32,000 nt of DNA, taken from Candidatus Thorarchaeota archaeon. Its GTDB lineage: Archaea > Asgardarchaeota > Thorarchaeia > Thorarchaeales > Thorarchaeaceae. A program made the position numbers and the translations under genes. The notes below the pieces were generated by a model that was not told where the DNA came from, made no database searches, and saw nothing but the letters and a program-made list of their open reading frames with translations. Positions 13,501-32,000 of the stretch are shown one piece after another; within the stretch, counting starts at the first letter, position 1, and each line of letters begins with the position of its first letter. Location: the NCBI GenBank assembly GCA_008080745.1, contig SHMX01000004.1, positions 120,001-152,000 on the forward strand, read 5' to 3'.

Positions 13501-14787
13501 TCAATCTGATATCTCAAGAAGCGGTTGTCTTCCCTTACCTTGTGGAATAAGTGTGATAACACGATCTACTGATTGTTTCAATTCTTCCATATGTGTCACC
13601 ACGATGACCTGCTGAATCGAGTCTAACCCTTGAACTGCGTCTGGTAACCATCTACGTCTATAAGCATCCAAACCAGCACCTGGTTCGTCGAGTATCAATA
13701 AACCTGGAGGTGGACTAGCAATGGAATGTTTTTGGAGTGCAGTATTCATTCCCACACGCAACGCAAAATTGACACATACATCTTCCCCTCCAGATGCTGC
13801 AATCAAGGATACTTTGTTTCCCTTCAAATCATAGAGTGATATATCATAATCATCATCGATTACTAAATCACTATATTTATCGCCAAATATCTCTTTAAAT
13901 ATGGAACGAGCCTCATGTCTGATGTGGGGTCTCAGCTGAACTTCAGCTATATCGGGAATCGTTTTGAGAATTCTTTGTAATTGTTTTGAAACTTTCATCT
14001 CATGAGTTATTTCTTCGGGCCTGATTGAGATTTCTGGTTTATTCAATTCGGACTCTATGTCTTTTACTGATAGGACTACTTTATCCAGAAGAATTTTGAT
14101 AGGATCGATATCAAGGCTTGGACTATCAGTTTGAATCTTTTGCAGCGCAAGTTCTGCTTCTTTCAATTCGGTTTCCGAGGGCAATCTGGTCCGGATTTTT
14201 TCAAGATTGATCTTTGCTTCTTTAATCGATGTTAATTCCTTCTTTAGCGACCGGAATTCCTTTTTGGCCCTTGAACCTGTATTATCATATATACCCAACC
14301 CCATCATGTTGTAGAGATTCGATCTTCTTTTACTCGGCGTTGACCTTGACAGGCTATCAATTTCTCCCTGTCTTACGTAGGTTAATGCAGAAAATGCATG
14401 TCTATCCATTCCAAGCACACGTTCAATTTCTTCGTCTACTTTCTTTGGAGTACTCTCAATGGGTTTATGATCACCCTTAACAAATAGTTCTGCTTTTGTT
14501 TCGCCAGGATAAATTTTCCTGACAACGGTGTATGTTCTTTGGTTAATTGGAGCTGTGAAAGTGAGTTTTACTTTTCCCTTGGTTCTGCCATGTTTGATAA
14601 GCTCTTCAATCCTTCTAACGGTCTTGTCTTTTCTTGTAATTCTCTTGAATAATGCAAATTCAATAGCTTCTAAGATGGTGGTTTTTCCAGAACCATTTGG
14701 CCCAACAATTGCGAGAGAACCATTATGGAATTCTATTAGTTGATCAGTAAATACTTTGAAATTCTTAAGCTCCAGTGTTTCCAACAT
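13501..14787 (-). CDS. rad50: Rad50/SbcC-like SMC-family ATPase, very short coiled coil, no Zn hook
   Basis: LELKNFK, Walker A GPNGSGKT, Q-loop YVRQGEI, signature SGGE, Walker B LILDEP, H-loop VTH; only 428 aa and a single Cys. Confidence 0.85.
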   Translation of the reverse strand: MLETLELKNFKVFTDQLIEFHNGSLAIVGPNGSGKTTILEAIEFALFKRITRKDKTVRRIEELIKHGRTKGKVKLTFTAPINQRTYTVVRKIYPGETKAELFVKGDHKPIESTPKKVDEEIERVLGMDRHAFSALTYVRQGEIDSLSRSTPSKRRSNLYNMMGLGIYDNTGSRAKKEFRSLKKELTSIKEAKINLEKIRTRLPSETELKEAELALQKIQTDSPSLDIDPIKILLDKVVLSVKDIESELNKPEISIRPEEITHEMKVSKQLQRILKTIPDIAEVQLRPHIRHEARSIFKEIFGDKYSDLVIDDDYDISLYDLKGNKVSLIAASGGEDVCVNFALRVGMNTALQKHSIASPPPGLLILDEPGAGLDAYRRRWLPDAVQGLDSIQQVIVVTHMEELKQSVDRVITLIPQGKGRQPLLEISD

Positions 14788-14794
14788 CCTATAA

Positions 14795-15862
14795 TCACAC
14801 TCCCATAATACGTCCGAGAAAATCCATCAATTCATCAAGTCCCTTTTCCTCAGTCTGTTCAACATAATCTCTGATACTAGTTTCGATATTCAGTGGCTGA
14901 TTTAGTCTGATATCTCGTGGACCATAACATTCCCAATTAGGTTCAATATGGACAAAAAGAGAATTCAGTTTGCTTTCTGCATGCTGAAGAATTTTCACTC
15001 TATCTAGTCCATTCTCCGTTTCGGAGTCGATAGTTCCATTAACTCTAACAATGATTATTGAGCCATCCTTCTTTGGTGACAATTTTTCTAAAATCTTCTT
15101 CAAATAGGAATTAACCTCATCTGGCCCCATTCCAGTGATTTGAGCCTGAGGAAATTTGAACTCTCTGATATCGTTTATTTGCTCAGTTGTATACTCATTA
15201 CCTTGTTTATCACTATCAATAACTATGAGTTTCTTCGTTCCCCCAATTTCTTTATTCCAATTTACATAACACGTTGAACCTGGACGTCCAATGTCATATT
15301 CTTCATCTAACCAAAAACTATGTGCATGACCACATCCGTAATAATTGAAATGAATTGGCAATCGTTCCTTAGGAACGGGAATATGATGTGCGAATAAGAA
15401 GGCTGGATTGGTTTCTGGAATGATATCATTGAGTTTCCTCTGAAAGCTTCTCTCTCTAGTCCATGATATCAGGTGTATCTCGGTCTTCTTACCATCTATA
15501 TCTACTTCATGAAGTTTGTAGTCCGATTTACCCGTTGATTTCACAACACCGGCAGTTTCAAGACTGGTGATAGGACTCTGAATGTGATGATATCCAAAAG
15601 GAATATCATGATTTCCATGTACTAGAAAAACTTCGACTTTATCTTGGACACTCTTAAATAACTCCATTGCAAAATTCAAATCTTCCATTGATGGAAGTGG
15701 ATTATCAAACAAATCGCCTGTATGGACTAGGATATCTGGTGATTGCCTCATAGCCATACGAACAGCTTTTCTTAGACACTTTCGGACATCCTCTTTTCGT
15801 TCCACCAATTGAAATAGAGTATTTCCAAGATGTGAATCTGAAATATGAGCGATTCGTACCAT
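14795..15862 (-). CDS. mre11: Mre11/SbcD-family metallophosphoesterase nuclease
   Basis: HISDSHLG, HTGDLFD, HGNHD, AHH, GHAH, RPGS; likely start ATG 15862 with GGAG RBS; directly upstream of the Rad50-like gene. Confidence 0.88.
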   Translation of the reverse strand: MVRIAHISDSHLGNTLFQLVERKEDVRKCLRKAVRMAMRQSPDILVHTGDLFDNPLPSMEDLNFAMELFKSVQDKVEVFLVHGNHDIPFGYHHIQSPITSLETAGVVKSTGKSDYKLHEVDIDGKKTEIHLISWTRERSFQRKLNDIIPETNPAFLFAHHIPVPKERLPIHFNYYGCGHAHSFWLDEEYDIGRPGSTCYVNWNKEIGGTKKLIVIDSDKQGNEYTTEQINDIREFKFPQAQITGMGPDEVNSYLKKILEKLSPKKDGSIIIVRVNGTIDSETENGLDRVKILQHAESKLNSLFVHIEPNWECYGPRDIRLNQPLNIETSIRDYVEQTEEKGLDELMDFLGRIMGV

Positions 15863-16055
15863 TACGACAACTCCAATGAGTAGTTCCAATCAGGAGATCA
15901 TTACTTGCAAATCCTGAACTACCCTCAATACACTTTCTCTTATTCTAAAACCAATATTTCAATAATATTGTGATGTCTTAGAGATTCAGCAACTATTTAG
16001 AATTTGTTGGAGTTTATATTACTTAGAAATGATGAAGTAATGATAATTCTATCCG

Positions 16056-17716: not shown

Positions 17717-19267
17717 CTACACTAATACCTCACAAGATTCAAGAACTTTAGTATCTGTTGTAAGAGAGATTGGTTTTGCTTGAATGTGACTCGATTTTAC
17801 CACATCCTCAAAATGAGATCTTGTCATTCTGTGGAGTGTCGTTGCTCCCAGTGCTCCAGTTTCACGAACTACTCTGAATTCTTCATTTGAACTTTTTAAT
17901 CCCTCTTCAAATGCGAGCACAAACTCTCTCGGATCGGTTCTCTCTCTGAACATAGCAGCAATCACATATTTAGGAATTCCTTCTTCGACTAATCCGATTA
18001 CACTATAATCCATGACTTCAGAACTGGTCTTTGAACAAGCAAAAGCGATTGCATCTGAAACATGCGCTTCAGAGAGCTTCTCACCAGATAAATTAACCAC
18101 TCTTCCTTTTCTGGAGATAGAATGTATTGTATATGGGTCAGTGTCACCAAATGTTACGATATCTCCATTTCTATATCGATAATACCCTCCCTTGTTGGTT
18201 ATAACTATCTCATATCTGAATCCTCTTTTGACTTCGGATAATGGGATAACCTCTGGATTTGGTTTCTCACAGTCTCTTTCACGAATAAATTCAAAATACG
18301 TCAGTTGTGGAATAAGTTGCATACCTTTCGTGTCTTCATACATCTGACCAGCATAAACTCCTTCTGATCCTCCGTAAATATCCCATATTGTTACATTAGG
18401 CAATGTTTTCTTAATCCACTCTCTATATGGGTCGGTATCTATTCCTGAAGCATAAAATAATCTTAAATCCGGCATTAGTTCCGCAACATCAACCTTACCA
18501 TCGTCGTAAACTGCTCGTTTAATTCTAGCTTCATGTTTCGTTCCTTTTGTTACATCTTGCAATAAAGAACCATATTGATTCTGTAGTCTCCTCAACAAGG
18601 CAAGGGATAGAGTCGTGATGCCTTGTAATGCTGTAATTCTTTCAGTCGCAACAATCTTGGCATATTCTCGCATCTTATCGTCCATATCCATTAGATTGAA
18701 GATATCTTTACCCGGTTTCATTAGACGTTGAAAAATAGGATTTTGACGACTTGCGTACACTCCTGTTGCATATCCCACAGGTATTCCATTTATTCTATTT
18801 AATTCGATTGGTGCTCCAAAAACAAGAAGGGTTCCATCCAATATTTTTGGATTTTCTTTGTCTGCCATCATGAATGCCATTAGTGTATGCATTGATGCTT
18901 GTGATACTTCTTTGCAGGCCGTTACCGTGAACGGTAGATGCTTTGGCTTACCTGTCGTTCCTGAAGTTTGAAGGTATGCAAAGGGGGTTTCCATAGTCAA
19001 AGCTTGGCAATCTGGGTTTTCGTAAATCCTTTGAAGATATGGCATACGCGATTGATGCGTAGAGAGTGGTATACAATCGGCCCATTCTTCTATATTATGT
19101 ATTGATTGAAAATCGTATTCTTTCCCAAATTGTGTACTCTGTTGGCATTCTATTATTTCAAATAATTTCTTTTCTGTATGTTCAATTGGTGCATTCAAAA
19201 TGCCTTCCATTTGCTTGAACTTCTTACGTGCCAAAATTGACACCAGACGCCTCATAATCGACATCAC
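17717..19267 (-). CDS. GH3 family acyl-acid amido synthetase-like protein
   Basis: TQFGKEYDF, QTSGTTGKPKHLP, YGGSEG, GGYYRYRNGD, GEKLSE motifs of GH3 adenylating enzymes. Confidence 0.9.
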   Translation of the reverse strand: MMSIMRRLVSILARKKFKQMEGILNAPIEHTEKKLFEIIECQQSTQFGKEYDFQSIHNIEEWADCIPLSTHQSRMPYLQRIYENPDCQALTMETPFAYLQTSGTTGKPKHLPFTVTACKEVSQASMHTLMAFMMADKENPKILDGTLLVFGAPIELNRINGIPVGYATGVYASRQNPIFQRLMKPGKDIFNLMDMDDKMREYAKIVATERITALQGITTLSLALLRRLQNQYGSLLQDVTKGTKHEARIKRAVYDDGKVDVAELMPDLRLFYASGIDTDPYREWIKKTLPNVTIWDIYGGSEGVYAGQMYEDTKGMQLIPQLTYFEFIRERDCEKPNPEVIPLSEVKRGFRYEIVITNKGGYYRYRNGDIVTFGDTDPYTIHSISRKGRVVNLSGEKLSEAHVSDAIAFACSKTSSEVMDYSVIGLVEEGIPKYVIAAMFRERTDPREFVLAFEEGLKSSNEEFRVVRETGALGATTLHRMTRSHFEDVVKSSHIQAKPISLTTDTKVLESCEVLV

Positions 19268-19851: not shown

Positions 19852-20607
19852 ATGATAGCAAAGCTCGAAAGTCAACTTACTCACATCTGTAAGGACTCGG
19901 GATACAGCTCAAAGATGATTGATGCTACATCGATTCTTCAAATGGCATTCAATAACCCTGATCGTAATATCATCAAAGCGAGAATCAAGTATTCTGGTCA
20001 AAATGAAAAAACATGGATTGTAGTTATAGTTGGCTTGAGGAGTAGTGTTCTGCAGCCATTCAACAAATTCACCAATATAGCTAGTGGCCAATACTCCCCC
20101 TGTGACATTTTTGGTATTGTTCCTTGCATCGCCCAACTTGTTCGGTTCGAATCTACAGGGCCCTCTCTGAGTGCAATTGTGAAAGACGATGTCACTCGGA
20201 TTGTTTTGGTCTTTGAAGGTGATTCAGAGGCTAGATTAGGACCCATTAACTCATTGGCAACCCGACTGTGGCGGTTCATGAAACGGTGGGATGAGTGGAC
20301 AGAGGTCCTACTGGGGATTTTGGAACGTGATCAATATGTTGGTGATTGGGAGCTAAATTGGCGTGAACTTTTGGCTGGTGAATCAGGTTTTGTAACGATG
20401 CCATGGTTTTCTCCTTTGCATTATGATAATCGAGTCTTAGCTATGGCAAGAATAGTAACAGCTTCCAAAGCACTTCTCACCTCTGTTTTGAGTGGTCAAC
20501 AAATGAGTGATTCAATGATAACGGGATTACTTGATTGGTTGGAAAACTTGGAACCTCTTCCAAGAATAGAGAGTGCTCCGTCAACAGATGAGGAGGTAAT
20601 GGTATAA
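19852..20607 (+). CDS. Hypothetical protein (operon gene 1)
   Basis: 251-aa ORF, GGTGA RBS; no recognised motif. Confidence 0.8.
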   Translation: MIAKLESQLTHICKDSGYSSKMIDATSILQMAFNNPDRNIIKARIKYSGQNEKTWIVVIVGLRSSVLQPFNKFTNIASGQYSPCDIFGIVPCIAQLVRFESTGPSLSAIVKDDVTRIVLVFEGDSEARLGPINSLATRLWRFMKRWDEWTEVLLGILERDQYVGDWELNWRELLAGESGFVTMPWFSPLHYDNRVLAMARIVTASKALLTSVLSGQQMSDSMITGLLDWLENLEPLPRIESAPSTDEEVMV

Positions 20608-20608
20608 A

Positions 20609-21076
20609 ATGCTAGTAAACGAATATCTGGGTAATAGTTGGAACGGAGAATTTGGTGTTCCGGACCTATCATGGTTATCTGGTGCAAAGGCTGGAATGCA
20701 GACTTTGAGTGAGCGGAGTCCTACATGGCTTTGGGATGATTTCATTACTGATATTCAAGAGATGATTGAATTAACACGAGATCTTGGATGCACTTTCCCA
20801 GGACAAATCCCCCGCCTTGGAGATGGGCTATCTGGTTCGATTCTTAGTGCACTTGGTGGGTATATCAGTATAACAGGATGTCTTATTGTTGAAGGTCTCT
20901 TCTTCCGAGTTTCTAGGAGGTATCACGAGGATGTGAAAATTGCATTGTCCGGTATTGAGATTCAATCGGTCTATGATGGTTTGGTTATTTCTGCTTCTGA
21001 TTTTAAGCGCCTTCATAACCTCGTAACAATTTGGGGCCCACTTGAGGAGATGCTGGCTGAGGAGGTCATAAAGTGA
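20609..21076 (+). CDS. Hypothetical protein (operon gene 2)
   Basis: 155-aa ORF, GAGGT RBS-like motif; stop overlaps the radA-like start (GTGA). Confidence 0.75.
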   Translation: MLVNEYLGNSWNGEFGVPDLSWLSGAKAGMQTLSERSPTWLWDDFITDIQEMIELTRDLGCTFPGQIPRLGDGLSGSILSALGGYISITGCLIVEGLFFRVSRRYHEDVKIALSGIEIQSVYDGLVISASDFKRLHNLVTIWGPLEEMLAEEVIK

Positions 21077-22137
21077 CAGATCTTGAGTCAGTTAGTGGAG
21101 TAGGCCCTGCAGCTGCAAAGAAATTGCGTGAAGTATTCGTGACCACAGCAGAACTACTCGCGGTTCAAAATCCCGTGGAACTTCAAGCGAAGACCAAACT
21201 TGGTGAAGGAACAGTTGATAAAATCATCAAGAATGCCCGAGAGCTGGTTGGGACTTTTGGTTTCAAGAGTGGACTTGAGGTCGAACAGGATATGGCGGAA
21301 CTACCACGGCTATCAACAGGTATTTCCAAACTTGATGATGAATTACTTGGCGGCATCGAGATTGGATCAATCGTTGAATTCTTTGGCCCATCAAGAGGTG
21401 GAAAAACTCAATGGGCGGCTCAACTTGCTGTTATGACTCAGCTACCTTTAGAACAGGGGGGTCTCGATGGAAGAGTACTTTGGCTGGATAGTGAGTCTTC
21501 TTTCAAGCCTTGGATTATCAGGGCTAATGCAATACGGTTTGGAATGGATCCAGATGTAGCACTTGGCAACATTGGAAGAGCGCAAATAATTCTAAGTAGT
21601 CAACTAATGGACCTCTTTGACTCCATACCGCAACTTTGTGCAGAGAATGATTACAAACTTGTTATTGTTGATTCGCTTACTGGTTTGTTTAGAGTGGAAT
21701 ATACCGGTCTAGAAATGTTGAAGGTACGTCAACAAGATATGAATGGTCTTCTAAATACGATGCGGAGAACTGCATCTGCAACAAACACCATTTTTGCATA
21801 TACTAACCATGTAATGGCAAAGATATCACTCTATGGAGGTAATCCAAATCATCCTGTGGGTGGACATACAATTTCACATGCTTCTGATTACAGATTCTAC
21901 ACGCGTAGATCAAAGAAAGACAAAAGGAAGTTGGACCTTCAAGATAATGCAGGAGTTCCGGAATTTAGCTTTGAATTAACTATTGGTTGGGGTGGATTCT
22001 ACGGCTCTAGTGCTGAGAAGAAGGAAGTTGAGCCCAAGATAAAGGAATACTTCGACAAACATGGTTTTGCGAAACCTGAATCAAGTCCTGATGAAGAATT
22101 GGAGGAGGACATTGTAGCGGCAGGTGAGATTGAGTGA
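21073..22137 (+). CDS. radA: RadA/Rad51-family recombinase, divergent full-length paralogue
   Basis: N-terminal HhH (LESVSGVGPAAAKKL), Walker A GPSRGGKT, LDSESSF, Walker B LVIVDS, L1 LFRVEYTG..RQ, L2 TNHV..PVGGHTISH; acidic tail. Confidence 0.9.
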   Translation: MTDLESVSGVGPAAAKKLREVFVTTAELLAVQNPVELQAKTKLGEGTVDKIIKNARELVGTFGFKSGLEVEQDMAELPRLSTGISKLDDELLGGIEIGSIVEFFGPSRGGKTQWAAQLAVMTQLPLEQGGLDGRVLWLDSESSFKPWIIRANAIRFGMDPDVALGNIGRAQIILSSQLMDLFDSIPQLCAENDYKLVIVDSLTGLFRVEYTGLEMLKVRQQDMNGLLNTMRRTASATNTIFAYTNHVMAKISLYGGNPNHPVGGHTISHASDYRFYTRRSKKDKRKLDLQDNAGVPEFSFELTIGWGGFYGSSAEKKEVEPKIKEYFDKHGFAKPESSPDEELEEDIVAAGEIE

Positions 22138-22592
22138 AACAAGAACGTGGAATGTTTAGGATTTATCGTTGTCCTCAATGCAATAATATTGGTTATACTC
22201 GTGTTGAATCTGAGGATGACTTGTCTGCGTGTAGTCTATGTCGGGGAATAATTTTACATGAGTCTGGCACACTCTATGCGGCAACCGTACAGGAATCTGT
22301 TGATTTAGTTCGAGAACTTGTGATTCTTTCCAAACAAAATGGTGAGTCTAGTAAACCAACAAGAGGTAGGGGTTTACGAAAACGCATTCTTACTATTATA
22401 ATATCTCTAATTGATTTGAATAGAGGCAAACCTGTTCCCTTACGAGAAATTCTCAGAGAATGTGTTGATGCCGATATAGCTCTAGAACGAGCGATGACCT
22501 TTCTTGAACTTCTTGAAACAGAAGGAATCCTATTGAATTTTGACTCTAAAATCAGTTTAAAGAAGGAGGTAATCCAAGATGGCAGAATCTAG
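22134..22592 (+). CDS. Zn-ribbon plus C-terminal winged-helix protein (DUF1922/DUF5817-like layout)
   Basis: CPQC...CSLC; C-terminal RILTIIISL...VPLREILREC...AMTFLELLETEGIL resembles an MCM-C/wHTH fold. Confidence 0.7.
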   Translation: MKQERGMFRIYRCPQCNNIGYTRVESEDDLSACSLCRGIILHESGTLYAATVQESVDLVRELVILSKQNGESSKPTRGRGLRKRILTIIISLIDLNRGKPVPLREILRECVDADIALERAMTFLELLETEGILLNFDSKISLKKEVIQDGRI

Positions 22593-23214
22593 TTCCAAAT
22601 CAAAATCTGGTGTAGTATGGGTTCCCAGAACTCCTAAGACGGTAAAAAGAAGCTCGATGATTAATCTGGTCAATCTATTACTGAGAGAAACTTCTCATCG
22701 AGTAACTGTACTCGATAAGTCTGAAGAGCCTGATCCAAAACTGTTTGTGGTTACCCGTATTGAATGGAGAGATCCTGATATCAGAAAACCACTCCTTCCC
22801 CAGTTACCGAGATTACTATCACTATTGGAGACCCTTAGAGGCACTCGTGGTGTTCCTACTGAGATTTATTTAGACAGTACAGATGGTATTGCGGTCTATC
22901 TACCTACTCATGAAACCGTTTCCACCTTGCCTGAAAAACCAAAAGAGTGCGTACGTCATTTGATGGATTTAGTAGAAAATCATGTTGAACATACATTGGC
23001 AACTATGCAAGAGGTAGAGGAGTATTTCTGGAAGACCGCCCGTAAAAAGGGATATAGTCCTGAAATTGTTGCGAAGATTGATCTAAAAGAGAAACACTTC
23101 GACTCACCAGAACATGTCTATAGGTTCCAATATCTGCTGCAAAAATATTTCTCAATACGTTTCCGCATTCACTCAAGTGAGTCTTGTTTACGTGTGGAGG
23201 CTGGTAGTTGCTAA
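22579..23214 (+). CDS. Hypothetical protein (operon gene 5)
   Basis: 211-aa ORF, GGAGGT RBS; overlaps both neighbours. Confidence 0.8.
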   Translation: MAESSSKSKSGVVWVPRTPKTVKRSSMINLVNLLLRETSHRVTVLDKSEEPDPKLFVVTRIEWRDPDIRKPLLPQLPRLLSLLETLRGTRGVPTEIYLDSTDGIAVYLPTHETVSTLPEKPKECVRHLMDLVENHVEHTLATMQEVEEYFWKTARKKGYSPEIVAKIDLKEKHFDSPEHVYRFQYLLQKYFSIRFRIHSSESCLRVEAGSC

Positions 23215-25178
23215 CAGATACGACCGACCCGCTATCCTGGTTTCCATACCTGCCAAGACCTCATCAGGACAAAGCGGTTTACCTCTCTGCAGAGGTCTTT
23301 GGGTCGAAGAACGTGGGATTACTATCTGCTGATTGTGGTGTGGGTAAAACTATCGCAGTATTATCCGGCTATTTGGCGGCTCGATATGATGATCCAACAT
23401 CTAGGTTATTCGCTCTAACTAGAACCCACTCACAATCGAAAGTATTTGAAGAAGAATTAAGCATACTAAGAGAACAATCACTTGCTATCACAGCCACTTC
23501 TATGGTGTCAAGAGTACATGTATGTCCAATTCGTGCTCAGATTTCTTCCAATACCTCAACGGGATTCACAAAAGCTTGTTCCCAAATGGTCAAGATGGGT
23601 AGGTGCACTCATTATTGGAACATGTATAAGCGACATAGAGAAGAGGGAAAACTCACTATACGAAATCAAATTCGTTCTCTTCTGGAAGAGCTTCTAGATA
23701 CTGGAGTAGTTAGCAGAGACCGAGCAGAAGACTTTGCAAATCTTCATACTCTCTGTCCATATGAAGTGCTTCGCTGGTGTGCTAGAAATAGTCGTGTTGT
23801 GATTGGACCTTATAGTTATATGTTCAAATCCCGTGTGCGTGATTCTCTGTTGGCTTCTGTGGGAGTCCATCTTCATGAATTGGACTTACTAATTGATGAA
23901 GCCCATAATCTTCCTTCTCATGTTCTTGATTCTGAAACAGCACGGTTGACTGGGGAAGACCTGAGATATCTGAAAGAGCATAGTCGAGAATTGGTTAGAG
24001 AGACAAGAGTCGATTGGATTGGAGAAGTTGTTGATTTTCTTTGGGAAACTCTCATGGTAAAATTGGATAGTTTTGGAAATAGACGCGAAATAAAACTGGA
24101 TAAATGGGATGTAGTTCCTCGCTTTATTGAGAAAGAGAGTCTTGACCTTTTGGTTCAATCCCATGATTTGAGTCTTGGTGACCCAGAAAATGCTGTACAT
24201 GCTGAGAATCCCTTTGATCGATTTGTTGATTTTTTGTTGATTGGAAGTAAAGCTGTTGAAAGCGAAGATTGGCATATATCGCTTAACTTGATGAAAAACT
24301 GGCATGGAGAAAAGACACCGCTTAAGACCAATCTTGCTATCCGCCCTTTGAATGCAGCTGGATTAACTGCACCTGTCCTAAGAGGTGCTAGATCAGCGTT
24401 GCTGATGAGTGGAACACTCAGACCATTAGAACACTATGGGAAGCTTCTTGGTGTTTCGGGTGCTTTAAAGGAGGACCTAGAGAGTCCATATCCCAAAGGT
24501 AGTAGACTTGTTCTTATTGATAAGAAACTGTCGACAAAATACACAGAGAGAAGTTCCGAACTCTGGAGACTGTTAGCTGAGCGTATCAATGCAGTTCTGA
24601 ATACTATGCCAGCAAATAAGAGTGCCATGATTGCCTTTCCTAGTTATCATATGATGCGTGAGATTTTGAGCTATTCCATCGACACCGGTTATCGTGGGAA
24701 GATAATTGAGGATCGTGGTGCTCGTCTGGAGTTTGTAACCGAGGCGATCGAAGAACGTCCTCAAGCGGTCTTCTGTGTATATGGTGGAAAATTCAGTGAA
24801 GGAATTGATATTGTAAAAGATGGTTCTAGTATGATTGACCTAATTATTGGTGTTGGTATTCCTTTTAGCCCACCAACCAGCTATCAGCAAGCAATTCAGG
24901 ATTGGTACAATCGGAAATTTGGTGAAGGTTTAGGGTATTACTACTCGTCGGTTGTACCATCATTACGTCAGGTTGCTCAATTGATTGGCCGTCTTAGAAG
25001 ATCCCCTTCTGATTGGGGTGTGGTTACTCTTCTAGATAATCGGTTTATGAGATATTTGTCAATTCTGGGTGATGGTATCGTTTCTGATATTTGGCCTTAT
25101 GAGAGTGTATCTGAGATTCGTTCTGCTATCACATCCTTTGTAGAAATGAGAATGGGTGATAATTGTGAGATATTCTAA
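23208..25178 (+). CDS. xpd: XPD/Rad3/DinG-family Fe-S DNA helicase
   Basis: Q motif RPHQ, Walker A ADCGVGKT, four Cys of the Fe-S domain (VCP, KAC, GRC, LCPY), DEAHN, SGTL, GGKFSEGID, QLIGRLRR. Confidence 0.93.
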   Translation: MLTDTTDPLSWFPYLPRPHQDKAVYLSAEVFGSKNVGLLSADCGVGKTIAVLSGYLAARYDDPTSRLFALTRTHSQSKVFEEELSILREQSLAITATSMVSRVHVCPIRAQISSNTSTGFTKACSQMVKMGRCTHYWNMYKRHREEGKLTIRNQIRSLLEELLDTGVVSRDRAEDFANLHTLCPYEVLRWCARNSRVVIGPYSYMFKSRVRDSLLASVGVHLHELDLLIDEAHNLPSHVLDSETARLTGEDLRYLKEHSRELVRETRVDWIGEVVDFLWETLMVKLDSFGNRREIKLDKWDVVPRFIEKESLDLLVQSHDLSLGDPENAVHAENPFDRFVDFLLIGSKAVESEDWHISLNLMKNWHGEKTPLKTNLAIRPLNAAGLTAPVLRGARSALLMSGTLRPLEHYGKLLGVSGALKEDLESPYPKGSRLVLIDKKLSTKYTERSSELWRLLAERINAVLNTMPANKSAMIAFPSYHMMREILSYSIDTGYRGKIIEDRGARLEFVTEAIEERPQAVFCVYGGKFSEGIDIVKDGSSMIDLIIGVGIPFSPPTSYQQAIQDWYNRKFGEGLGYYYSSVVPSLRQVAQLIGRLRRSPSDWGVVTLLDNRFMRYLSILGDGIVSDIWPYESVSEIRSAITSFVEMRMGDNCEIF

Positions 25179-25758
25179 GAAGAAAAATTACTTCTGGAGC
25201 TTTGTTACTGGATCATTGGTTGGTTTTGTTCTGTATGTATTTCTAAACCAGACTATATTTGATGTTGTCATTGGTGTAATGGGAATTGGAATTGGAATTG
25301 GGATTATACTTCTATGGACCCAATTATTCAAGGCAAAAATCATGTGGAGTGAAACCCATGGATGTTTGGCCATTAATCGCAAGTATACTGTCGATGTATA
25401 TGCAGGATGTATTATGACAAGTGTTCCTCTTGGTATTGATCTAAGTCGTTCAGCTCGAAAAGTGCTACGAGCTATCGCTACCAGGATGAAAAATGATATC
25501 GACTGTGAGATTAGTTTTTTTGTCATTCGGCCTGTTCATAAATTCCAAACGAGGGTCGGACTACTGGTTTCACGTAATACCTTCCGTTTAGTGAATGGGC
25601 TTACTCAATCCGACTCTCTTCTAAAGCAACTGAATCAGGATGTAATGACCTTAGAGTCCGCTTTGAGAGCTGCCTATCCTCACACGCCTGTTGAAAGAGC
25701 ATCAGCTGATGATTTGCTACTTGTTACTACTGGAGGAGTCTACACCCATGAAATCTAA
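25156..25758 (+). CDS. Hypothetical membrane protein, two N-terminal TM helices plus soluble domain
   Basis: FWSFVTGSLVGFVLYVFL and VVIGVMGIGIGIGIILLW; exact start uncertain. Confidence 0.75.
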   Translation: MIIVRYSKKKNYFWSFVTGSLVGFVLYVFLNQTIFDVVIGVMGIGIGIGIILLWTQLFKAKIMWSETHGCLAINRKYTVDVYAGCIMTSVPLGIDLSRSARKVLRAIATRMKNDIDCEISFFVIRPVHKFQTRVGLLVSRNTFRLVNGLTQSDSLLKQLNQDVMTLESALRAAYPHTPVERASADDLLLVTTGGVYTHEI

Positions 25759-26050
25759 ACTACGTAGTTCCTTAGAGATACCCTCCTCTATAGAGCCAAA
25801 TGATGTGATGGAAGCACTTCGAATCGGACATGGATACCAGTGGACTAGGTTGGTTTTAGAACCAAAATTCATGGCTCATGGAAATCCTCCTTCTTCCAAG
25901 CTTCCAGAGTTGTTATTTATTGGGATAAAAACCCTCATTCTTTCTGGCGGTTCTCCTGAGTTTCCTGAGAGAATTGAGAAGATGATTGATGCAATTTGTA
26001 GAAGCTCGAAACGAAAACAGAAATTATCTGGAGGAAGGTATCATGGGTAA
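25748..26050 (+). CDS. Small hypothetical protein (100 aa)
   Basis: ATG 25748 preceded by GGAGGAG; MKSKLRSSLEIP...; overlaps both neighbours. Confidence 0.65.
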   Translation: MKSKLRSSLEIPSSIEPNDVMEALRIGHGYQWTRLVLEPKFMAHGNPPSSKLPELLFIGIKTLILSGGSPEFPERIEKMIDAICRSSKRKQKLSGGRYHG

Positions 26051-28382
26051 ACCGTTAATTCTTGGTTCAGAACCAGAAAAAGATCCACTAGAATCACGGA
26101 CTCGACAAAGCATGATTGTGAGCTCTGATACAGAGATAGATTGGGATAGTCGAAGTGTAGAACAAAAGTGGTCATTTCCGATTCTTATTGGCTTTATCAC
26201 AATATTAGTAGTATTGTTTCAACCTATTCTTTCGATTTGTTTAACTATTATCATCCTATCTACCCTTTATTTTCTTCCTACTGTTTCAGCAAGAAGAGAA
26301 ATCGATTCTATCAGAAATAGTCAATGGATTATACTGAAGCCACGTGAAAATATTCTCTCGGAAACCGATGAAACTCTACTATATCGGGATAATGATGATA
26401 ATCGTCATTTAATAGGGTTAGAATTGTTTGAACCAAGTAACATGTTGTTTGGCTCTTTGGGAAGCATGATACGCTCTCTCAATACAGACCATGGTTTTGT
26501 GCTTCGTGTTTCTATGCGATTGGAATCGATAGAAGAAGTAATTAATCAAGATAGAATTCGTTCTAATAAGGAAGAGTATCTGGAATCACTTGGTAAATCT
26601 GGCAGGCATCGATTCATTTCTGTTAGAGGCGGGCTCTGGTCTACTTATGTAATGCTTGTTGGTCATCTTAGAGATTTACATTCGGTTTCTACCTTTGAAG
26701 CTGCTATACATGGGGCAGTTCCAACATCAGGTTGGAAACAAATCGAGAATAAAGATCTCGCTAAACGATTGACCATTCAGAAGAGCGATTATTTATCCCG
26801 GTTTTATGCTCTGGGTCATGAGCTATCGGAATGGCTTGTTCAATTACCCAGTGAGTTAGCGCCCGAAGTAGGAAGCAATGTGCCCAGTGAATTCCTATCT
26901 CCGATTAAAACTATAGCTTCTGATTATCCACTTGGAGTCGCTGTGAATCCTGAAACACTCCAGACTGGGCCTGTAGTCGGATTTAGTCATAATGATTTAG
27001 TGAATGGAACTTTAGTATGTGGTGGCACCAACGCAGAACGAAAGCGGATACTTGCACTCCTCATCCAGGCATTGATTGCTAAAGAAAAACGTGTTCTCCT
27101 CATAACTGGCAATCCAAATTATGGGGATTTGGCTGGTCTCACAGAGAATGTAATTACCTTGGAGCTGGGTCATGACTTTGTTCTTAACCCCGTTGATCCC
27201 GACAATGTACCAAGGACCGAGTATGTTGGGCAATTGATTTCTGCTTTGGAGATTTTGGCAGGAGCTGACCTTACAGGAGCTGCTGATCTTGAGATAGCAC
27301 TAAACCGAACAGTAGCAATTGGGAATACCACTGTGGCAGATGTTAGATTTGATACTGCAGAAGAATTGATGGATTCCCCATCGATTGATAAGACCTCTCA
27401 GACAACAAAACCAAGTAATAAGTCCCTAGTGGGTCTTGATGCAGTCCGACTATTGCATGAGGGATCTGGTGCTCGTGCATTTTATGGAACTCAAACCATC
27501 CCTATCCGTGATTTCACTAAAATTCCCTATACAGTTCTTACCATTAACCTAGGGTCTGTCGAACTGGATACATTTGCATTTGATTTATTGATGATGAAAT
27601 TAGCCGGTCTGAAACAAGATTCCGATTTTGTAGTGATTTTTAATGAACCACTAAATCTTGTTGCTAGAAATCGACGACATTATTACAGAATTCCATGGAT
27701 AGAGTTCCTTGCTAAACGTGTGAAAAAGAGGGGCCCATTAGTTGTAGCAATGGAACACCCTGCTGATTTTTCACCTGCAACTATTGGATTGTTGACTTCA
27801 TGTGTTTCATCTAGGTTACGAGAGTCAGTGGATGTAAAAGAGGCTGTTGATCTTCTTGGTCTAAGTGTTATTCAAACTGGGATGCATAGTAAAGCACGTC
27901 ATTCTTCAAGAGAAACTTCCTTTCTACGGGTTATCCCTGATGGAATGGCTGTTATTGCAAATACTGGTGGTGAATTAGGTTATCCCGTAAAACTGAATGA
28001 TTCCCCAGACCTCTCGGAGATGACATCAACCACAGATGTAACAAAGCGTCTGGCTGAATATACGACTTGTGTAAAAGAAAGTAGCTCTAGGAAGACAGAT
28101 TCATTAATTGAGCATGTGATGGGCCGGGATTACGAACATGGCATAGCAGTATTACGTCTTCTTCAAAGATATGAACCCCTTACCCAAGAGGCTGTTAGAA
28201 AATTCATCTCTACTACAACTGATGATGTTCCTGATATAGAAGCCATTTTGATGAAATTAGAACGTGGAAGTTTGATTCTGAAGGGACATGAAATTCACAG
28301 TGGTGTCTCTTATTTGAACTATCGATTGACAATGAAAGGAACAATGGCGTTGAGGCAAAACGGGGAGGATTTGATGAAATGA
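26043..28382 (+). CDS. Membrane-anchored HerA/VirB4-fold pseudo-ATPase with C-terminal winged helix
   Basis: Likely start ATG 26043 (GGAGG RBS); TM hairpin near the N-terminus; HerA-like scaffold TLVCGGTNAERK / VLLITGNPNY / LNPVD / VIFNEP / VVAMEHPADF with destroyed Walker A and D-to-N Walker B; wHTH-like end LMKLERGSLI...YRLTMKG. Confidence 0.65.
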   Translation: MGKPLILGSEPEKDPLESRTRQSMIVSSDTEIDWDSRSVEQKWSFPILIGFITILVVLFQPILSICLTIIILSTLYFLPTVSARREIDSIRNSQWIILKPRENILSETDETLLYRDNDDNRHLIGLELFEPSNMLFGSLGSMIRSLNTDHGFVLRVSMRLESIEEVINQDRIRSNKEEYLESLGKSGRHRFISVRGGLWSTYVMLVGHLRDLHSVSTFEAAIHGAVPTSGWKQIENKDLAKRLTIQKSDYLSRFYALGHELSEWLVQLPSELAPEVGSNVPSEFLSPIKTIASDYPLGVAVNPETLQTGPVVGFSHNDLVNGTLVCGGTNAERKRILALLIQALIAKEKRVLLITGNPNYGDLAGLTENVITLELGHDFVLNPVDPDNVPRTEYVGQLISALEILAGADLTGAADLEIALNRTVAIGNTTVADVRFDTAEELMDSPSIDKTSQTTKPSNKSLVGLDAVRLLHEGSGARAFYGTQTIPIRDFTKIPYTVLTINLGSVELDTFAFDLLMMKLAGLKQDSDFVVIFNEPLNLVARNRRHYYRIPWIEFLAKRVKKRGPLVVAMEHPADFSPATIGLLTSCVSSRLRESVDVKEAVDLLGLSVIQTGMHSKARHSSRETSFLRVIPDGMAVIANTGGELGYPVKLNDSPDLSEMTSTTDVTKRLAEYTTCVKESSSRKTDSLIEHVMGRDYEHGIAVLRLLQRYEPLTQEAVRKFISTTTDDVPDIEAILMKLERGSLILKGHEIHSGVSYLNYRLTMKGTMALRQNGEDLMK

Positions 28383-30586
28383 CGACGATATCCGACGTTC
28401 CGAATCCAATTGAACAGATTCTGCATTCCGCAGGGATAAAACCCCGTGGTGTTCAAAAGAAAGCCATCAAAGCTGGGATTTATGATGGTAAAAGCATCAT
28501 GGTTTCGAGCCCTACGGGATCTGGTAAGACTCTCATCGGAGAAATGGCTCTCCTCCGTGCAGTTCTGAGTGGTAAGAAGGGCCTTTATTTGGTTCCCCTT
28601 AGGGCCCTCGCAGTACAAGTAGCGTCAGTTTTGAAAGAACGATATTTTGATTCCGAGATAAGTGTCGGATTAAGTACTGGTGACTATCATACAGATGGTG
28701 AAGAACTATCTACTTATGATGTAATTGTCACCACCTATGAACGAACAGATTCGCTTCTTCGGAAAAAGACGTCTTGGCTAGGAGAGATTGGAACAGTAGT
28801 AATTGATGAGATTCAGACTTTAGCGGAAACTCAAAGAGGAGCTAGATTAGAATCTACTATCATCCGACTAAAACATCTAATTCCAGAAATACAGCTGATT
28901 GTTTTATCTGCAACCATTGGAGCTCCAGATGAACTTGCAGAATGGTTGAGGTGTGAACTCGTAGTATCAAACGACCGTCCGATTCCACTTCATTCTAACA
29001 TAATCACTACAAGTGACAAGAGTAATGCAGTGAAAGAGATTGTTATGACTACTGTCCAGAGTAATGGTCAGTGTTTAGTATTTCATAGAACCCGTCGTGA
29101 AGCAGAGGTTCAGGCGATAAGACTTTCTGCAGATGTTGGTCGTCAATTCACAGCAGAAGAGAAGAAGAAAATAGATGACGAGTTAGGTTCTGTAGTTAAT
29201 TGGGACGTTAAACTACCTGCAGGTCTAAAAGCACTTCTTCATGATGGTACTGCATATCACCATGCTGGACTGAATTATCTTGCCCGGAGATTGGTTGAGG
29301 ATTTATTCAGACGTGGTATGATTCGCGTAATCTGTGCAACCACTACTCTAGCATCAGGAATCGATCTTCCTGCTCGTACTGTTGTTCTTACATCTGTGAA
29401 AGAGCCATCAAATCACAATCAATTCATGTCTGGAAATAAAATTCATCAGATGCTTGGAAGAGCAGGACGTCCAGGATACGACAAACGGGGGGTAGGTGTA
29501 CTGCTTGCTGGAAGCTCTGGAGAAGCAGATGTTATCAGACGTAAATACTTCAAAACTTCATCTGTTACGGAGAATAAATCTGAGATTCTTCAGCCAAAGT
29601 ATGATCGATTGTTTAGTACTCTGAATGAAACAAATGCCGTAACTGAACAGCTACTTGTTGGATTTGATATGTTTGGGTCCACCACGGTTGAAAACATTGA
29701 ACAAAGCTTATTCTCTGACTCTTTTCTGATGTATTGTAGTATTCGTGACACGCGATCACCACACAGAATTCTTCAATTAGATGAACTATCATCAGAAACT
29801 GCAATCGAACGACATGCCCTCCAAGATGCTATTAGGTCTGCAAGACAGAATGTGCTTGCAAGTGTAAAAATTAGAGAAAGCACTGATTCTGTAATTGGAG
29901 GGATTGTAACTGGATGGGAAGGAGGTAATTTCACATCACGATTTTCTGCAAAGCTTTCACCTGATGGTACCGTGGAGGGTCCAATGTGCTCTTGTGGCAT
30001 CCCTTTTGACTCGAATGGTTTACTTTGTCCTCATTTGGTGGCCTTGGGTTTTACTGCGTCAAAGGAATTAGGTACATTAGCTGATTATGTAATTCCACTC
30101 GCATTATCTGAGAGTAATCCATTAGGAGTTCTTACAAGATTAGGACTTATAGAAGGCTCTGAAGATGGTGAATATAGGATAACCCATCTAGGTAGTGTGG
30201 TTAATCGTCTATATCTTAGCATCCCAACCATCAGAGAAATGATTGCTTTGTTACCTTTCACCAGTGATGTAGAAGATCTTCTTTGGCTTCTAAGACATTT
30301 GGCTTCAATTGAAACCGGGAGTTCTCTTGATGACTCCTATGAAAATCTTGTAGCTGGTGTTGCAAGCACGGATATGGAAATTAGTAAACTGGCAGAGAGT
30401 CTTGAACTACATGTTGGTGATGCTTACGGCCTTTTAGAAACATCAAGATGGCTTCTATCTGCAATCTCTGCAGTGAGTGAAATAGGAGGATTTGAAGAAT
30501 TGGTACAAAAATCAACGAACTTGCTGAAATCGTTGGATAATCGTTTAGGAAGAACTACTCCAGAAAATCAGGAGGATGAGGAATAA
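28379..30586 (+). CDS. Ski2-like (Hel308-type) SF2 helicase with inserted SWIM zinc finger
   Basis: GVQKKA, SPTGSGKT, DEIQ, SAT, HHAGL, TTTLASGIDLPA, QMLGRAGRPGYD; CSC-x10-CPH at 29987-30034. Confidence 0.92.
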   Translation: MTTISDVPNPIEQILHSAGIKPRGVQKKAIKAGIYDGKSIMVSSPTGSGKTLIGEMALLRAVLSGKKGLYLVPLRALAVQVASVLKERYFDSEISVGLSTGDYHTDGEELSTYDVIVTTYERTDSLLRKKTSWLGEIGTVVIDEIQTLAETQRGARLESTIIRLKHLIPEIQLIVLSATIGAPDELAEWLRCELVVSNDRPIPLHSNIITTSDKSNAVKEIVMTTVQSNGQCLVFHRTRREAEVQAIRLSADVGRQFTAEEKKKIDDELGSVVNWDVKLPAGLKALLHDGTAYHHAGLNYLARRLVEDLFRRGMIRVICATTTLASGIDLPARTVVLTSVKEPSNHNQFMSGNKIHQMLGRAGRPGYDKRGVGVLLAGSSGEADVIRRKYFKTSSVTENKSEILQPKYDRLFSTLNETNAVTEQLLVGFDMFGSTTVENIEQSLFSDSFLMYCSIRDTRSPHRILQLDELSSETAIERHALQDAIRSARQNVLASVKIRESTDSVIGGIVTGWEGGNFTSRFSAKLSPDGTVEGPMCSCGIPFDSNGLLCPHLVALGFTASKELGTLADYVIPLALSESNPLGVLTRLGLIEGSEDGEYRITHLGSVVNRLYLSIPTIREMIALLPFTSDVEDLLWLLRHLASIETGSSLDDSYENLVAGVASTDMEISKLAESLELHVGDAYGLLETSRWLLSAISAVSEIGGFEELVQKSTNLLKSLDNRLGRTTPENQEDEE

Positions 30587-32000
30587 TGGTAATCTCTGAG
30601 AAAAAGGAATCTAGTGTTATTGAATCTGACACAACGGAAGATGCTGAAACTGAATATGACATTGTTCGAGCTCTTCAGAAGACAGAGCATCTTACTCATA
30701 CATATGAGAATGGACTGGTACTAGGGGTACGATTAGAAGGTGTAACTGGAACACGAGGGGTACACCTTGATATCGTACATATTCTAGACCTTAGAAAAGC
30801 AGAATTCGGCAAGACCAATTTGGCCATGCGTGCTGCTGTATTGGAGAGTATGAATCGAAGCCTTGAATCACTTCTTGAAGATGTTGGTTTGAATGATTTT
30901 CTTGAGGAAAGAACATTCATCACTGCATGGGGTCGGGTTCGCATTCCAACAATTGGTTCCGCCAAGCACAATTCCAGATCAATGATTCACGAAACTCGAA
31001 CAGTCTATGTGATTGTGAAAGACACAAAACCATCTACTGATTTTTCTTGGCTCACTGAAACAAAAAGAGTGGTGACCCCTGACGAGTTTGCTTTAGTTCG
31101 AATTACCGACACCAAGTCTCTTCTTACCAACCTCCAGAAACAGATTGCATCAGAAAAATGGAAGATACTAGAAAGGGGTTTCCGTGATAGTTGGTTAGGA
31201 ATCATCTTCTCTTCTATAATTTTGGTGGGTATAGGAAGTATTGTTGGTGTTCTACTTGTCAATAATGGCAATGTCGCTTTGCCAATATTTGCAATTATCG
31301 GTGGAGTTCTGCTAGGCGGATACTTTCTTAGCTCTTCTCGTAGACATCTCTCCGATTTTCGAGAAATGGTTTGTGTGGAGGAACAAAAGCTCTCTGAGAT
31401 GTCTGATAAGACGCGGATAGAAGAATCTGTCCTTGAGAATATGGATAGTATGCGTTTACTAGGTGATTTGAATTTTGTAGTTTCACCACTGATGGCAAAG
31501 GCTGGGAATGCATTATCTGACCTAGATCTTGATGGTGCTGTTAGCTTTGCGTGTTCGGTTATGGATGAATGTATGCGTCTATCTTCTGCAGATTTGAGTA
31601 AATTAGAGGGTTCATTCATAGGTGGTGATGAAGGTATTGCAAAATTTGTTGGGTTATTTGGAGATTTGGGTGCTGAAGAATATGAAACAGACTTGGCATT
31701 AGCTTATGTCGCACTAACAGGCTATACTATCAGTCCCATATCTGCTGAAGAGGTCATCACTCATATAGCCACTCTAAATAACGCTCTATACCATATTGGA
31801 GCTCTTAGACCTGATATAAAAGAAATAATCGACGATTTACTGAATTCGCGTGCAGGTATGGAGGCTGTAGAATATCTAAATGAGGAGCTAAGCAAACCAG
31901 AAGAACCTATTCCGGAACCTAGTTTGCCATCCAAGAAACAAGAAGAAGCAACAATCGAAGATAAAGAAGACAGCTCTGAAGAATTAGATGCACTTAAAGA
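30586..32000 (+). CDS. Hypothetical two-TM membrane protein, runs off the right edge (over 470 aa; absent from the ORF track)
   Basis: Manual translation from ATG 30586 (TAATG overlap): MVISEKKESSVIES...; open to 32000; TM pair WLGIIFSSIILVGIGSIVGVLLV / LPIFAIIGGVLLGGYFL; acidic, Pro-rich end. Confidence 0.8.
   Translation, partial: MVISEKKESSVIESDTTEDAETEYDIVRALQKTEHLTHTYENGLVLGVRLEGVTGTRGVHLDIVHILDLRKAEFGKTNLAMRAAVLESMNRSLESLLEDVGLNDFLEERTFITAWGRVRIPTIGSAKHNSRSMIHETRTVYVIVKDTKPSTDFSWLTETKRVVTPDEFALVRITDTKSLLTNLQKQIASEKWKILERGFRDSWLGIIFSSIILVGIGSIVGVLLVNNGNVALPIFAIIGGVLLGGYFLSSSRRHLSDFREMVCVEEQKLSEMSDKTRIEESVLENMDSMRLLGDLNFVVSPLMAKAGNALSDLDLDGAVSFACSVMDECMRLSSADLSKLEGSFIGGDEGIAKFVGLFGDLGAEEYETDLALAYVALTGYTISPISAEEVITHIATLNNALYHIGALRPDIKEIIDDLLNSRAGMEAVEYLNEELSKPEEPIPEPSLPSKKQEEATIEDKEDSSEELDALK

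Follow-up and report, generated by a model that had tools for sequence, protein, structure and literature searches.

A second full-length RadA/Rad51-type protein, encoded in an optional fifteen-gene operon, forms a distinct subfamily in Thorarchaeia

Attempts to date when meiotic recombination arose make use of the duplication of the RadA/Rad51 recombinase, and the Asgard archaea are the relevant outgroup. Both eukaryotic recombinases, Rad51 and Dmc1, keep the arginine of the GRG motif in the first DNA-binding loop (L1). RadB and aRadC, Rad51-fold accessory proteins present alongside RadA in archaea, have no N-terminal domain. Archaeal RadB, the Rad55-Rad57 pair and the RAD51 paralogue complexes are examples of mediators, and the human Hel308 homologue HELQ works with the RAD51 paralogues. 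Within the Asgard archaea a second RadA clade has been described in Heimdall-, Gerd-, Njord- and, weakly, Lokiarchaeia (Matsuo et al. 2025, PMC12722695); three Thorarchaeal genomes were sampled in that study, the text of which makes no mention of a Thorarchaeal paralogue, and literature searches beyond it returned nothing on such a protein. Here we describe RadA2, a RadA/Rad51-family paralogue encoded in a 32,000-nucleotide stretch (hereafter the window) of the Candidatus Thorarchaeota archaeon assembly GCA_008080745.1 (contig SHMX01000004.1, positions 120,001 to 152,000). An initial annotation of the window considered this protein a filament-competent, specialised second recombinase, conceptually comparable to the Rad51/Dmc1 split, or a mediator, but left out of account the accessory operon of fifteen genes in which it is encoded.

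The radA2 open reading frame (21073..22137, +) begins with a GTG codon, has no internal stops and codes for a full-length paralogue of 354 amino acids. Residues 77-306 match the Pfam Rad51 domain (PF08423) with 178.9 bits, against a cut-off of 22, and residues 3-57 (21079..21243, +) match HHH_5 with 34 bits (cut-off 27), bearing out the N-terminal helix-hairpin-helix (HhH) domain of the initial annotation; the G9-V-G-P12 segment of this domain is kept across the family and its helices are confidently modelled. The AlphaFold2 (AF2) model of the protein has a predicted local distance difference test (pLDDT) score of 88.4, and its best Foldseek matches are the filament protomers of RAD51, Dmc1 and RadA, with a template modelling (TM) score of about 0.9 when normalised by target. 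Among the features of the RadA/Rad51/Dmc1 family, RadA2 has the Rad51-type ATPase core, the HhH N-domain, Walker A and B and the catalytic glutamate. It falls well below the NCBIfam cut-offs for RadB (TIGR02237, 52.1 bits against 172.4) and for the eukaryotic recombinases Dmc1 and Rad51 (TIGR02238 and TIGR02239, 195 against 448 and 187 against 478, respectively), and is not assigned to any of them. When a profile of the RadA2 family was run against solved structures, it scored 298 bits with Pyrococcus Rad51/RadA, 263 with human RAD51 and 231-237 with Dmc1, but only 95-116 bits with RAD51B, RAD51C and XRCC3.

Residue conservation was counted over 118 full-length RadA2 relatives. The polymerisation-type motif noticed initially is present as F64-K-S-G67 (21262..21273, +), an FxxG replacing the usual FxxA, with F64 kept in 117 of the 118 sequences and G67 in all of them; orthodox Thorarchaeal RadA has alanine where the RadA2 family has this invariant glycine. 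The positions mapped to the receiving pocket for a docking phenylalanine by reference to the RAD51-BRC4 structure stay hydrophobic (L136, L138, F144, L164, I167, A170, I185 and L/M188). The Walker A motif G105-PSRGGK-T112 (21385..21408, +) does carry the altered sequence first pointed out, but the changes fall at variable positions only: G105, K111 and T112 are invariant, G110 is found in 117/118 relatives, the family consensus is GPARGGKT, and GxxxxGK[ST] is intact in RadA2. Judged by its sequence, this P-loop is unusual rather than disabled. The catalytic Glu141 (21493..21495, +) is kept in 118/118, the DTEGTF of orthodox RadA having become D[ST]ESSF around it, and both D200 and S201 of the Walker B motif LVIVDS (residues 196-201; 21658..21675, +) are invariant.

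Loop L1 (Y210-Q221; 21700..21735, +), with YTGLEMLKVRQ at residues 210-220, has Leu213 in place of the first arginine of the orthodox GRG, as initially annotated, while R219 and Q220 are invariant. Downstream lie TNHV (residues 244-247) and the L2 loop (248-262), together spanning 21802..21858 (+). The replacement of TNQV by TNHV, also part of the initial annotation, holds for the protein of the window, but position 246 is glutamine in 115 of the 118 relatives and histidine in three, making TNHV a peculiarity of the window's own lineage and not a family trait. L2 has the orthodox length in the RadA2 family, with I251, Y254, P261, G263, G264 and H265 conserved and residues 249-256 disordered in the AF2 model, as usual. 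Further invariants are R207, the G263-G264-H265 triplet and D291; we take His265 to be a contact made in trans to ATP. The acidic tail at the C-terminus is likewise present, but is only the end of a conserved extension (median 48.5 amino acids; 21988..22134, +) that orthodox RadA lacks. It opens with a WGGFY motif, whose W306 is kept in 113/118, followed by a helix at residues 313-329 (pLDDT 94-96) and the tail itself (residues 335-354), which is disordered in the model (pLDDT <50); the last 20 residues of the extension have a median net charge of -7.

The genome of the window (3.16 Mb in 19 contigs, 98% complete) also encodes an orthodox RadA of 344 amino acids, on the same contig and 61 kb upstream (C4:79460-80494), so RadA2 is not its sole RadA. 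The orthodox protein matches Pfam Rad51 with 318 bits, carries GSFRSGKT, the L1 sequence YTGRGTLAARQQ and TNQV, and shares 39% identity with RadA2; three short RadB/KaiC-like genes complete the set. RadA2 is not the housekeeping recombinase. In a comparison of the RadA2 family with 38 orthodox RadA sequences from Thorarchaeia, the two share the same conserved residue at 70 positions, and a further 43 are conserved in each family but with different residues. Divergence among RadA2 proteins roughly tracks that among the orthodox RadA proteins (r 0.51).

The placement of RadA2 was assessed in an unrooted IQ-TREE phylogeny of 74 sequences (LG+C20+F+G4, by posterior mean site frequencies), which included RadA2 and looser relatives drawn from a library clustered at 50% identity, orthodox RadA of Thorarchaeia and other Asgard archaea, 12 other Asgard paralogues, RadA of further archaea, and eukaryotic Rad51 and Dmc1 whose identity was verified with NCBIfam. 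All 30 RadA2-type sequences, looser relatives included, lie on one side of a branch with support of 100/98, apart from orthodox RadA, and nearly all remaining sequences fall into one group supported at 99/98. Rad51 and Dmc1 form a clade of their own (100/99) on the other side of the tree from RadA2; the comparison with their split is apt as a conceptual analogy only, and RadA2 is unrelated to it. The approximately unbiased (AU) test rejects the grouping of RadA2 with orthodox Thorarchaeal RadA in one clade (p 0.0009), and with it a recent Thorarchaeal duplication of orthodox RadA, with the proviso that fast evolution and long branches can mislead such a test. Of 28 RadA-like genes taken from 15 genomes of other Asgard archaea, none fell within the RadA2 clade, and no characterised paralogue clade containing RadA2 was found. 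The looser members of the clade share the WGGFY motif, and their gene contexts differ from the operon described below. One genome (G021; contigs C20, C144 and C188) carries three RadA2-type copies of 50-73% identity, and in another (G012:C31; L035:8589-9629) a looser third RadA2-type copy lies outside the operon. RadA2 is a distinct, full-length RadA/Rad51-type subfamily that is maintained by selection.

This subfamily is confined to Thorarchaeia. A search of 5.8 billion proteins returned more than 120 RadA2 clusters at 58-87% identity, and every source name given for them is Thorarchaeota, Lokiarchaeota or Promethearchaeota. With presence scored at E ≤ 1e-70, RadA2 occurs in 54 of the 85 genomes of the window's family and in the single genome of the sister family, and in 0/314 genomes searched from all other Asgard families. 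A scan of species-representative genomes with a profile built from seven sequences yielded 37 loci of at least 47% identity; most titles read Thorarchaeota, the remainder being Promethearchaeota, "uncultured archaeon", plain "archaeon" and one Hermodarchaeota. A scan of viral contigs recovered no close RadA2 relative, the best being 29% identical, and a viral origin of RadA2 was rejected on this basis.

The radA2 gene is the third of fifteen genes on the same strand and is translationally coupled to its neighbours, with junction overlaps in the operon of 4-14 nucleotides; its start overlaps the upstream stop by 4 nt and its own stop overlaps the next start by 4 nt. At least 16 genomes share the gene order, one of them from the sister family, and the downstream genes are conserved in eight of the nine family genomes checked. 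Across genera the operon occupies the same chromosomal place, with identical flanking genes on both sides. Its G+C fraction is 0.40-0.43, against 0.35-0.37 in the 6 kb upstream. Four of the functions encoded in the operon, RadA, XPD, Hel308 and FEN1, are each represented by a better-scoring copy elsewhere in the genome.

The first operon gene (19852..20607, +) codes for a 251-amino acid protein of no known family, occupying an equivalent place in 16 related genomes, and the fifth (22579..23214, +) for one of 211 amino acids, also of no known family and syntenic in 16 genomes; neither has a match in Pfam, NCBIfam or PADLOC, and the protein atlas gave no usable lead for either. The second gene (20609..21076, +) encodes a 155-amino acid protein with a LAGLIDADG homing-endonuclease fold (AF2 pLDDT 87.5), the VIA-align matches of which are headed by PI-PfuI (Z 10.5), with I-Tsp061I (Z 9.1) and WhiA (Z 7.4) among them, ranks 1-20 all being LAGLIDADG proteins. 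Its motif, LGGY[IV]S[IV]TG, is without the catalytic acidic residues, and the modelled protein is probably a domesticated, non-cutting DNA-binding protein. A complex prediction for RadA2 and this protein scored 0.00, a value that counts neither for nor against binding. The fourth gene (22134..22592, +), syntenic in 17 genomes, codes for 152 amino acids with a CxxC...CxxC zinc ribbon and a C-terminal part which, from its sequence, is probably a winged helix. The other small operon proteins show no similarity to RadA2.

Two helicases, each the lower-scoring of two in the genome, are encoded further downstream. The sixth gene (23208..25178, +) codes for a second XPD/Rad3-type helicase (XPD2) with the Pfam domains DEAD_2, HBB and Helicase_C_2, the better XPD being encoded at C2:269369 (110.8 against 71.2 bits). 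The tenth (28379..30586, +) codes for a second Hel308/Ski2-like helicase, which scores 356 bits with NCBIfam PRK02362 and 279 bits with the Hel308 model, both under cut-off; the better Hel308, at C2:409265, reaches 585 bits. Between them lie genes seven and eight (25156..26050, +), for proteins of 200 amino acids, with an N-terminal transmembrane hairpin, and 119 amino acids, assigned from hydropathy and synteny, and the syntenic gene nine (25986..28382, +), for a membrane-anchored, HerA/VirB4-like protein of 798 amino acids with a transmembrane helix at residues 73-91. The profile of the 798-amino acid family matches HerA-type ATPases weakly (E 0.004-0.02), and the best PDB matches among these ATPases come from defence complexes. 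The eleventh gene (30586..32000, + and continuing beyond the window end; L036:586-2145) encodes a 519-amino acid membrane protein with one or two transmembrane helices predicted from hydropathy. The remaining four lie beyond the window end and encode an AAA ATPase of 258 amino acids (gene 12, by Pfam), a polytopic membrane protein of 331 amino acids with about five transmembrane helices predicted from hydropathy (gene 13; L036:2790-3785), a RadB-like protein of 239 amino acids (gene 14, by Pfam) and an XPG/FEN1-like nuclease of 329 amino acids (gene 15, by Pfam). At least four operon products, those of 200, 798, 519 and 331 amino acids, are thus predicted membrane proteins.

Several genes in the surroundings and at other loci may be recorded alongside. 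About 4 kb upstream of the operon, at window positions 13501-15889 (-), a gene for an Mre11-like metallophosphoesterase (363 amino acids) adjoins one for an unusually short SMC/Rad50-like ATPase (427 amino acids). A GH3-family adenylating enzyme (window 17717-19267, -) flanks the operon in most genomes, and GH3 genes also adjoin two of the looser RadA2-like genes elsewhere (L119:902-5628 and L035:11628-13205), in one case together with a ThiF/E1-like gene. The better-scoring XPD gene of the window genome lies about 2 kb from a short RadB-like gene (G000:C2:269369-272587), which makes this a second locus where the gene for a helicase neighbours that for a Rad51-fold protein.

The reading that we favour, with a probability of about 0.5, is that RadA2 is a DNA-pairing ATPase dedicated to this optional operon. 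The fold, motif conservation, paralogy, distribution and operon membership are observed, whereas oligomerisation, DNA binding, the substrate and the role of the tail are inferred. Since the ATPase residues, the polymerisation phenylalanine and L2 are under selection, filament competence is plausible. RadA2 would bind ATP through its intact P-loop, Glu141 and Asp200, and would assemble head to tail, with Phe64 inserted into the hydrophobic pocket of a neighbouring Rad51-fold protomer, either RadA2 itself or the RadB-like protein of the operon. It may then hold single-stranded DNA in an ATP-dependent manner through the conserved L2 and Arg219/Gln220, while capture of a second DNA could be changed or gated by the missing first arginine of L1 and by the extra helix and acidic tail at the C-terminus. 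By analogy, this tail may act as its acidic counterpart at the C-terminus of bacterial RecA does.

A number of observations weigh against this reading. Position 213, that of the first L1 arginine of orthodox RadA, which we take to be equivalent to the DNA contact R235 of RAD51 known from structural work, is leucine in 98 and isoleucine in 20 of the 118 relatives and arginine in none, which argues against orthodox strand exchange. Of the NCBIfam RadA models, PRK04301/NF003301 is just missed (258.4 bits, cut-off 259) and TIGR02236 is missed by a wide margin (234.7 against 361.15). In a set of 17 genomes, RadA2 evolves approximately 2.7 times faster than the orthodox RadA of those genomes, a rate at which an old paralogue and a fast offshoot look alike in an unrooted tree. 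In the looser relatives within the RadA2 clade, L1 has decayed entirely. RadA2 was not found in 31 of the 85 family genomes searched, although gaps in the assemblies may account for part of these misses; as they include a single-contig genome that is also without the gene for the 798-amino acid protein, RadA2 is dispensable. In three genomes (G379, G014 and G003) both RadA2 and this 798-amino acid operon gene are missing, and the absences look real. A further candidate loss, in the single-scaffold genome G341, was rejected: a gap of 100 Ns (L178:13924-14023, on G341:C1) lies exactly at the expected place of radA2 and the two genes upstream, replacing the end of radA2, and the rest of the operon is there. 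Apparent absences of the operon can hence be assembly artefacts. Of the initial proposal of a specialised second recombinase, what stands is that a full-length RadA is encoded in addition to the orthodox one; the proposal needs to be qualified by the restriction to Thorarchaeia, the roughly one third of family genomes without a match, the elevated rate and the lost DNA-contact arginine.

The same observations lend themselves to the main rival explanation, that RadA2 is a mediator or co-filament partner which nucleates, caps or stabilises filaments of orthodox RadA without itself pairing DNA. We regard this as possible but appreciably less probable than a dedicated DNA-pairing ATPase. Loss of the L1 arginine in every member, evolution faster than that of RadA and the decayed L1 of the looser clade members would all be expected of a mediator, and a degenerate RadA2-like copy in tandem with radA2 points the same way. 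This copy replaces the 155-amino acid gene in two lineages (L027:10157-11269, - and L060:9006-10004, +); its Walker A is retained, the catalytic glutamate and the glutamine of TNQ have both become glycine, and L1 is decayed. The copy and RadA2 look like a heterodimeric paralogue pair, an arrangement typical of heteromeric accessory paralogues and as such a further point against an autonomous recombinase. No homology was detectable between the 155-amino acid protein and the tandem copy with hhalign. In addition, a RadB-like protein is encoded in the operon along with an AAA ATPase, orthodox RadA could accommodate the conserved docking Phe64, and the presence of a Hel308-like helicase in the operon has a precedent in HELQ. 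Against a mediator, RadA2 retains what mediators usually lose, namely the N-domain, a full-length L2, the catalytic glutamate and His265; its profile is far nearer to the true recombinases than to RAD51B, RAD51C and XRCC3, and its gene is tied to separate helicases and a nuclease rather than to radA.

A wider proposal concerns the operon as a whole, which might constitute a membrane-anchored machine for DNA import or exchange, the equivalent in Thorarchaeia of the Ced system of Crenarchaeota but joined to a private recombinase. We consider this doubtful. On this proposal, the four membrane proteins, including the HerA/VirB4-like one, would take up DNA, the dead LAGLIDADG protein and the zinc-ribbon protein would guide it, XPD2, the Hel308-like helicase and the XPG-like nuclease would process it, and RadA2 with the RadB-like protein would pair it with the chromosome. 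It is less likely still that the operon serves in defence against viruses or plasmids, with RadA2 as its DNA-sensing or DNA-processing ATPase. Its optional occurrence (54/85 genomes), the weak likeness of the 798-amino acid protein to HerA ATPases and the PADLOC results, which liken XPD2 to the DinG helicase of type IV CRISPR and the Hel308-like helicase to HamB of Hachiman, are consistent with defence. RadA2 itself, however, has no PADLOC match, the helicase matches are generic to the superfamily, and neither the fixed chromosomal place and flanks across genera nor the lack of a close relative in viral contigs (best 29% identity) suits such a role. The fixed locus and a divergence roughly parallel to that of orthodox RadA suggest vertical inheritance with losses rather than a mobile defence island. 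A reading of RadA2 as a duplicate that is redundant or in decay, or as mobile-element cargo, without a dedicated cellular role, is very improbable, for its faster evolution, patchy presence and the operon G+C slightly above that of the upstream region are set against an intact frame in dozens of genomes, catalytic residues invariant in 118 sequences, a strict gene order over the family and its sister family, the absence of an integrase from Pfam scans of the operon genes and the want of close viral-contig relatives.

RadA2 is a specific candidate, amenable to cloning, for a pathway of specialised recombination or DNA exchange in Asgard archaea. It represents a conserved, full-length second RadA in one Asgard class, which arose independently of Rad51/Dmc1 and is accompanied by helicases, a nuclease, a Rad51-fold partner and membrane proteins of its own. 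The loss of the L1 arginine, the FxxG motif and the acidic tail make it a natural experiment in the re-tuning of a recombinase. Phylogenies of Asgard RadA should recognise the RadA2 clade instead of dropping its members as "highly divergent". If the DNA-import proposal were true, the closest prokaryotic relatives of eukaryotes would possess a dedicated, optional pathway of gene exchange.

Among the described systems, Rad51 and Dmc1 are similar to the Thorarchaeal situation in that two full-length recombinase-type paralogues occur per genome, but they have no specific kinship to RadA2. The published second Asgard RadA clade is likewise evidence of RadA duplication within the Asgard archaea; the paralogues sampled from 15 genomes of other Asgard archaea did not cluster with RadA2. 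RadA2 has an N-domain, unlike RadB and aRadC, and separate short RadB/KaiC-like genes are present in the genome, one of them in the RadA2 operon itself. In the RAD51 paralogue complexes BCDX2 and CX3 with HELQ, Rad51-fold proteins of unequal ATPase competence are combined with a Hel308-family helicase, and the operon similarly brings a Hel308-like helicase together with RadA2 and a RadB-like protein; this likeness is organisational, with no sign of shared descent, and RadA2 is not closer to the eukaryotic RAD51 paralogues than to the recombinases (95-116 against 231-298 bits). In bacterial RecA, too, the recombinase core is followed by a disordered C-terminus that is strongly acidic. The analogy is functional only, as the RadA2 tail is of independent origin and is placed after a conserved extra helix; it may have an autoinhibitory role. 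Orthodox archaeal RadA proteins, such as those of Pyrococcus furiosus (1PZN) and Saccharolobus (2BKE), have in common with RadA2 the architecture of HhH domain, docking phenylalanine, Walker A and B, catalytic glutamate, L1, L2 and PVGGH, with profile scores of 264-298 bits and fold TM-scores of 0.7-0.9. From these RadA2 differs in its FxxG motif, the leucine or isoleucine of L1, its C-terminal extension, faster evolution and optional occurrence, and in belonging to a separate clade encoded within an accessory operon.

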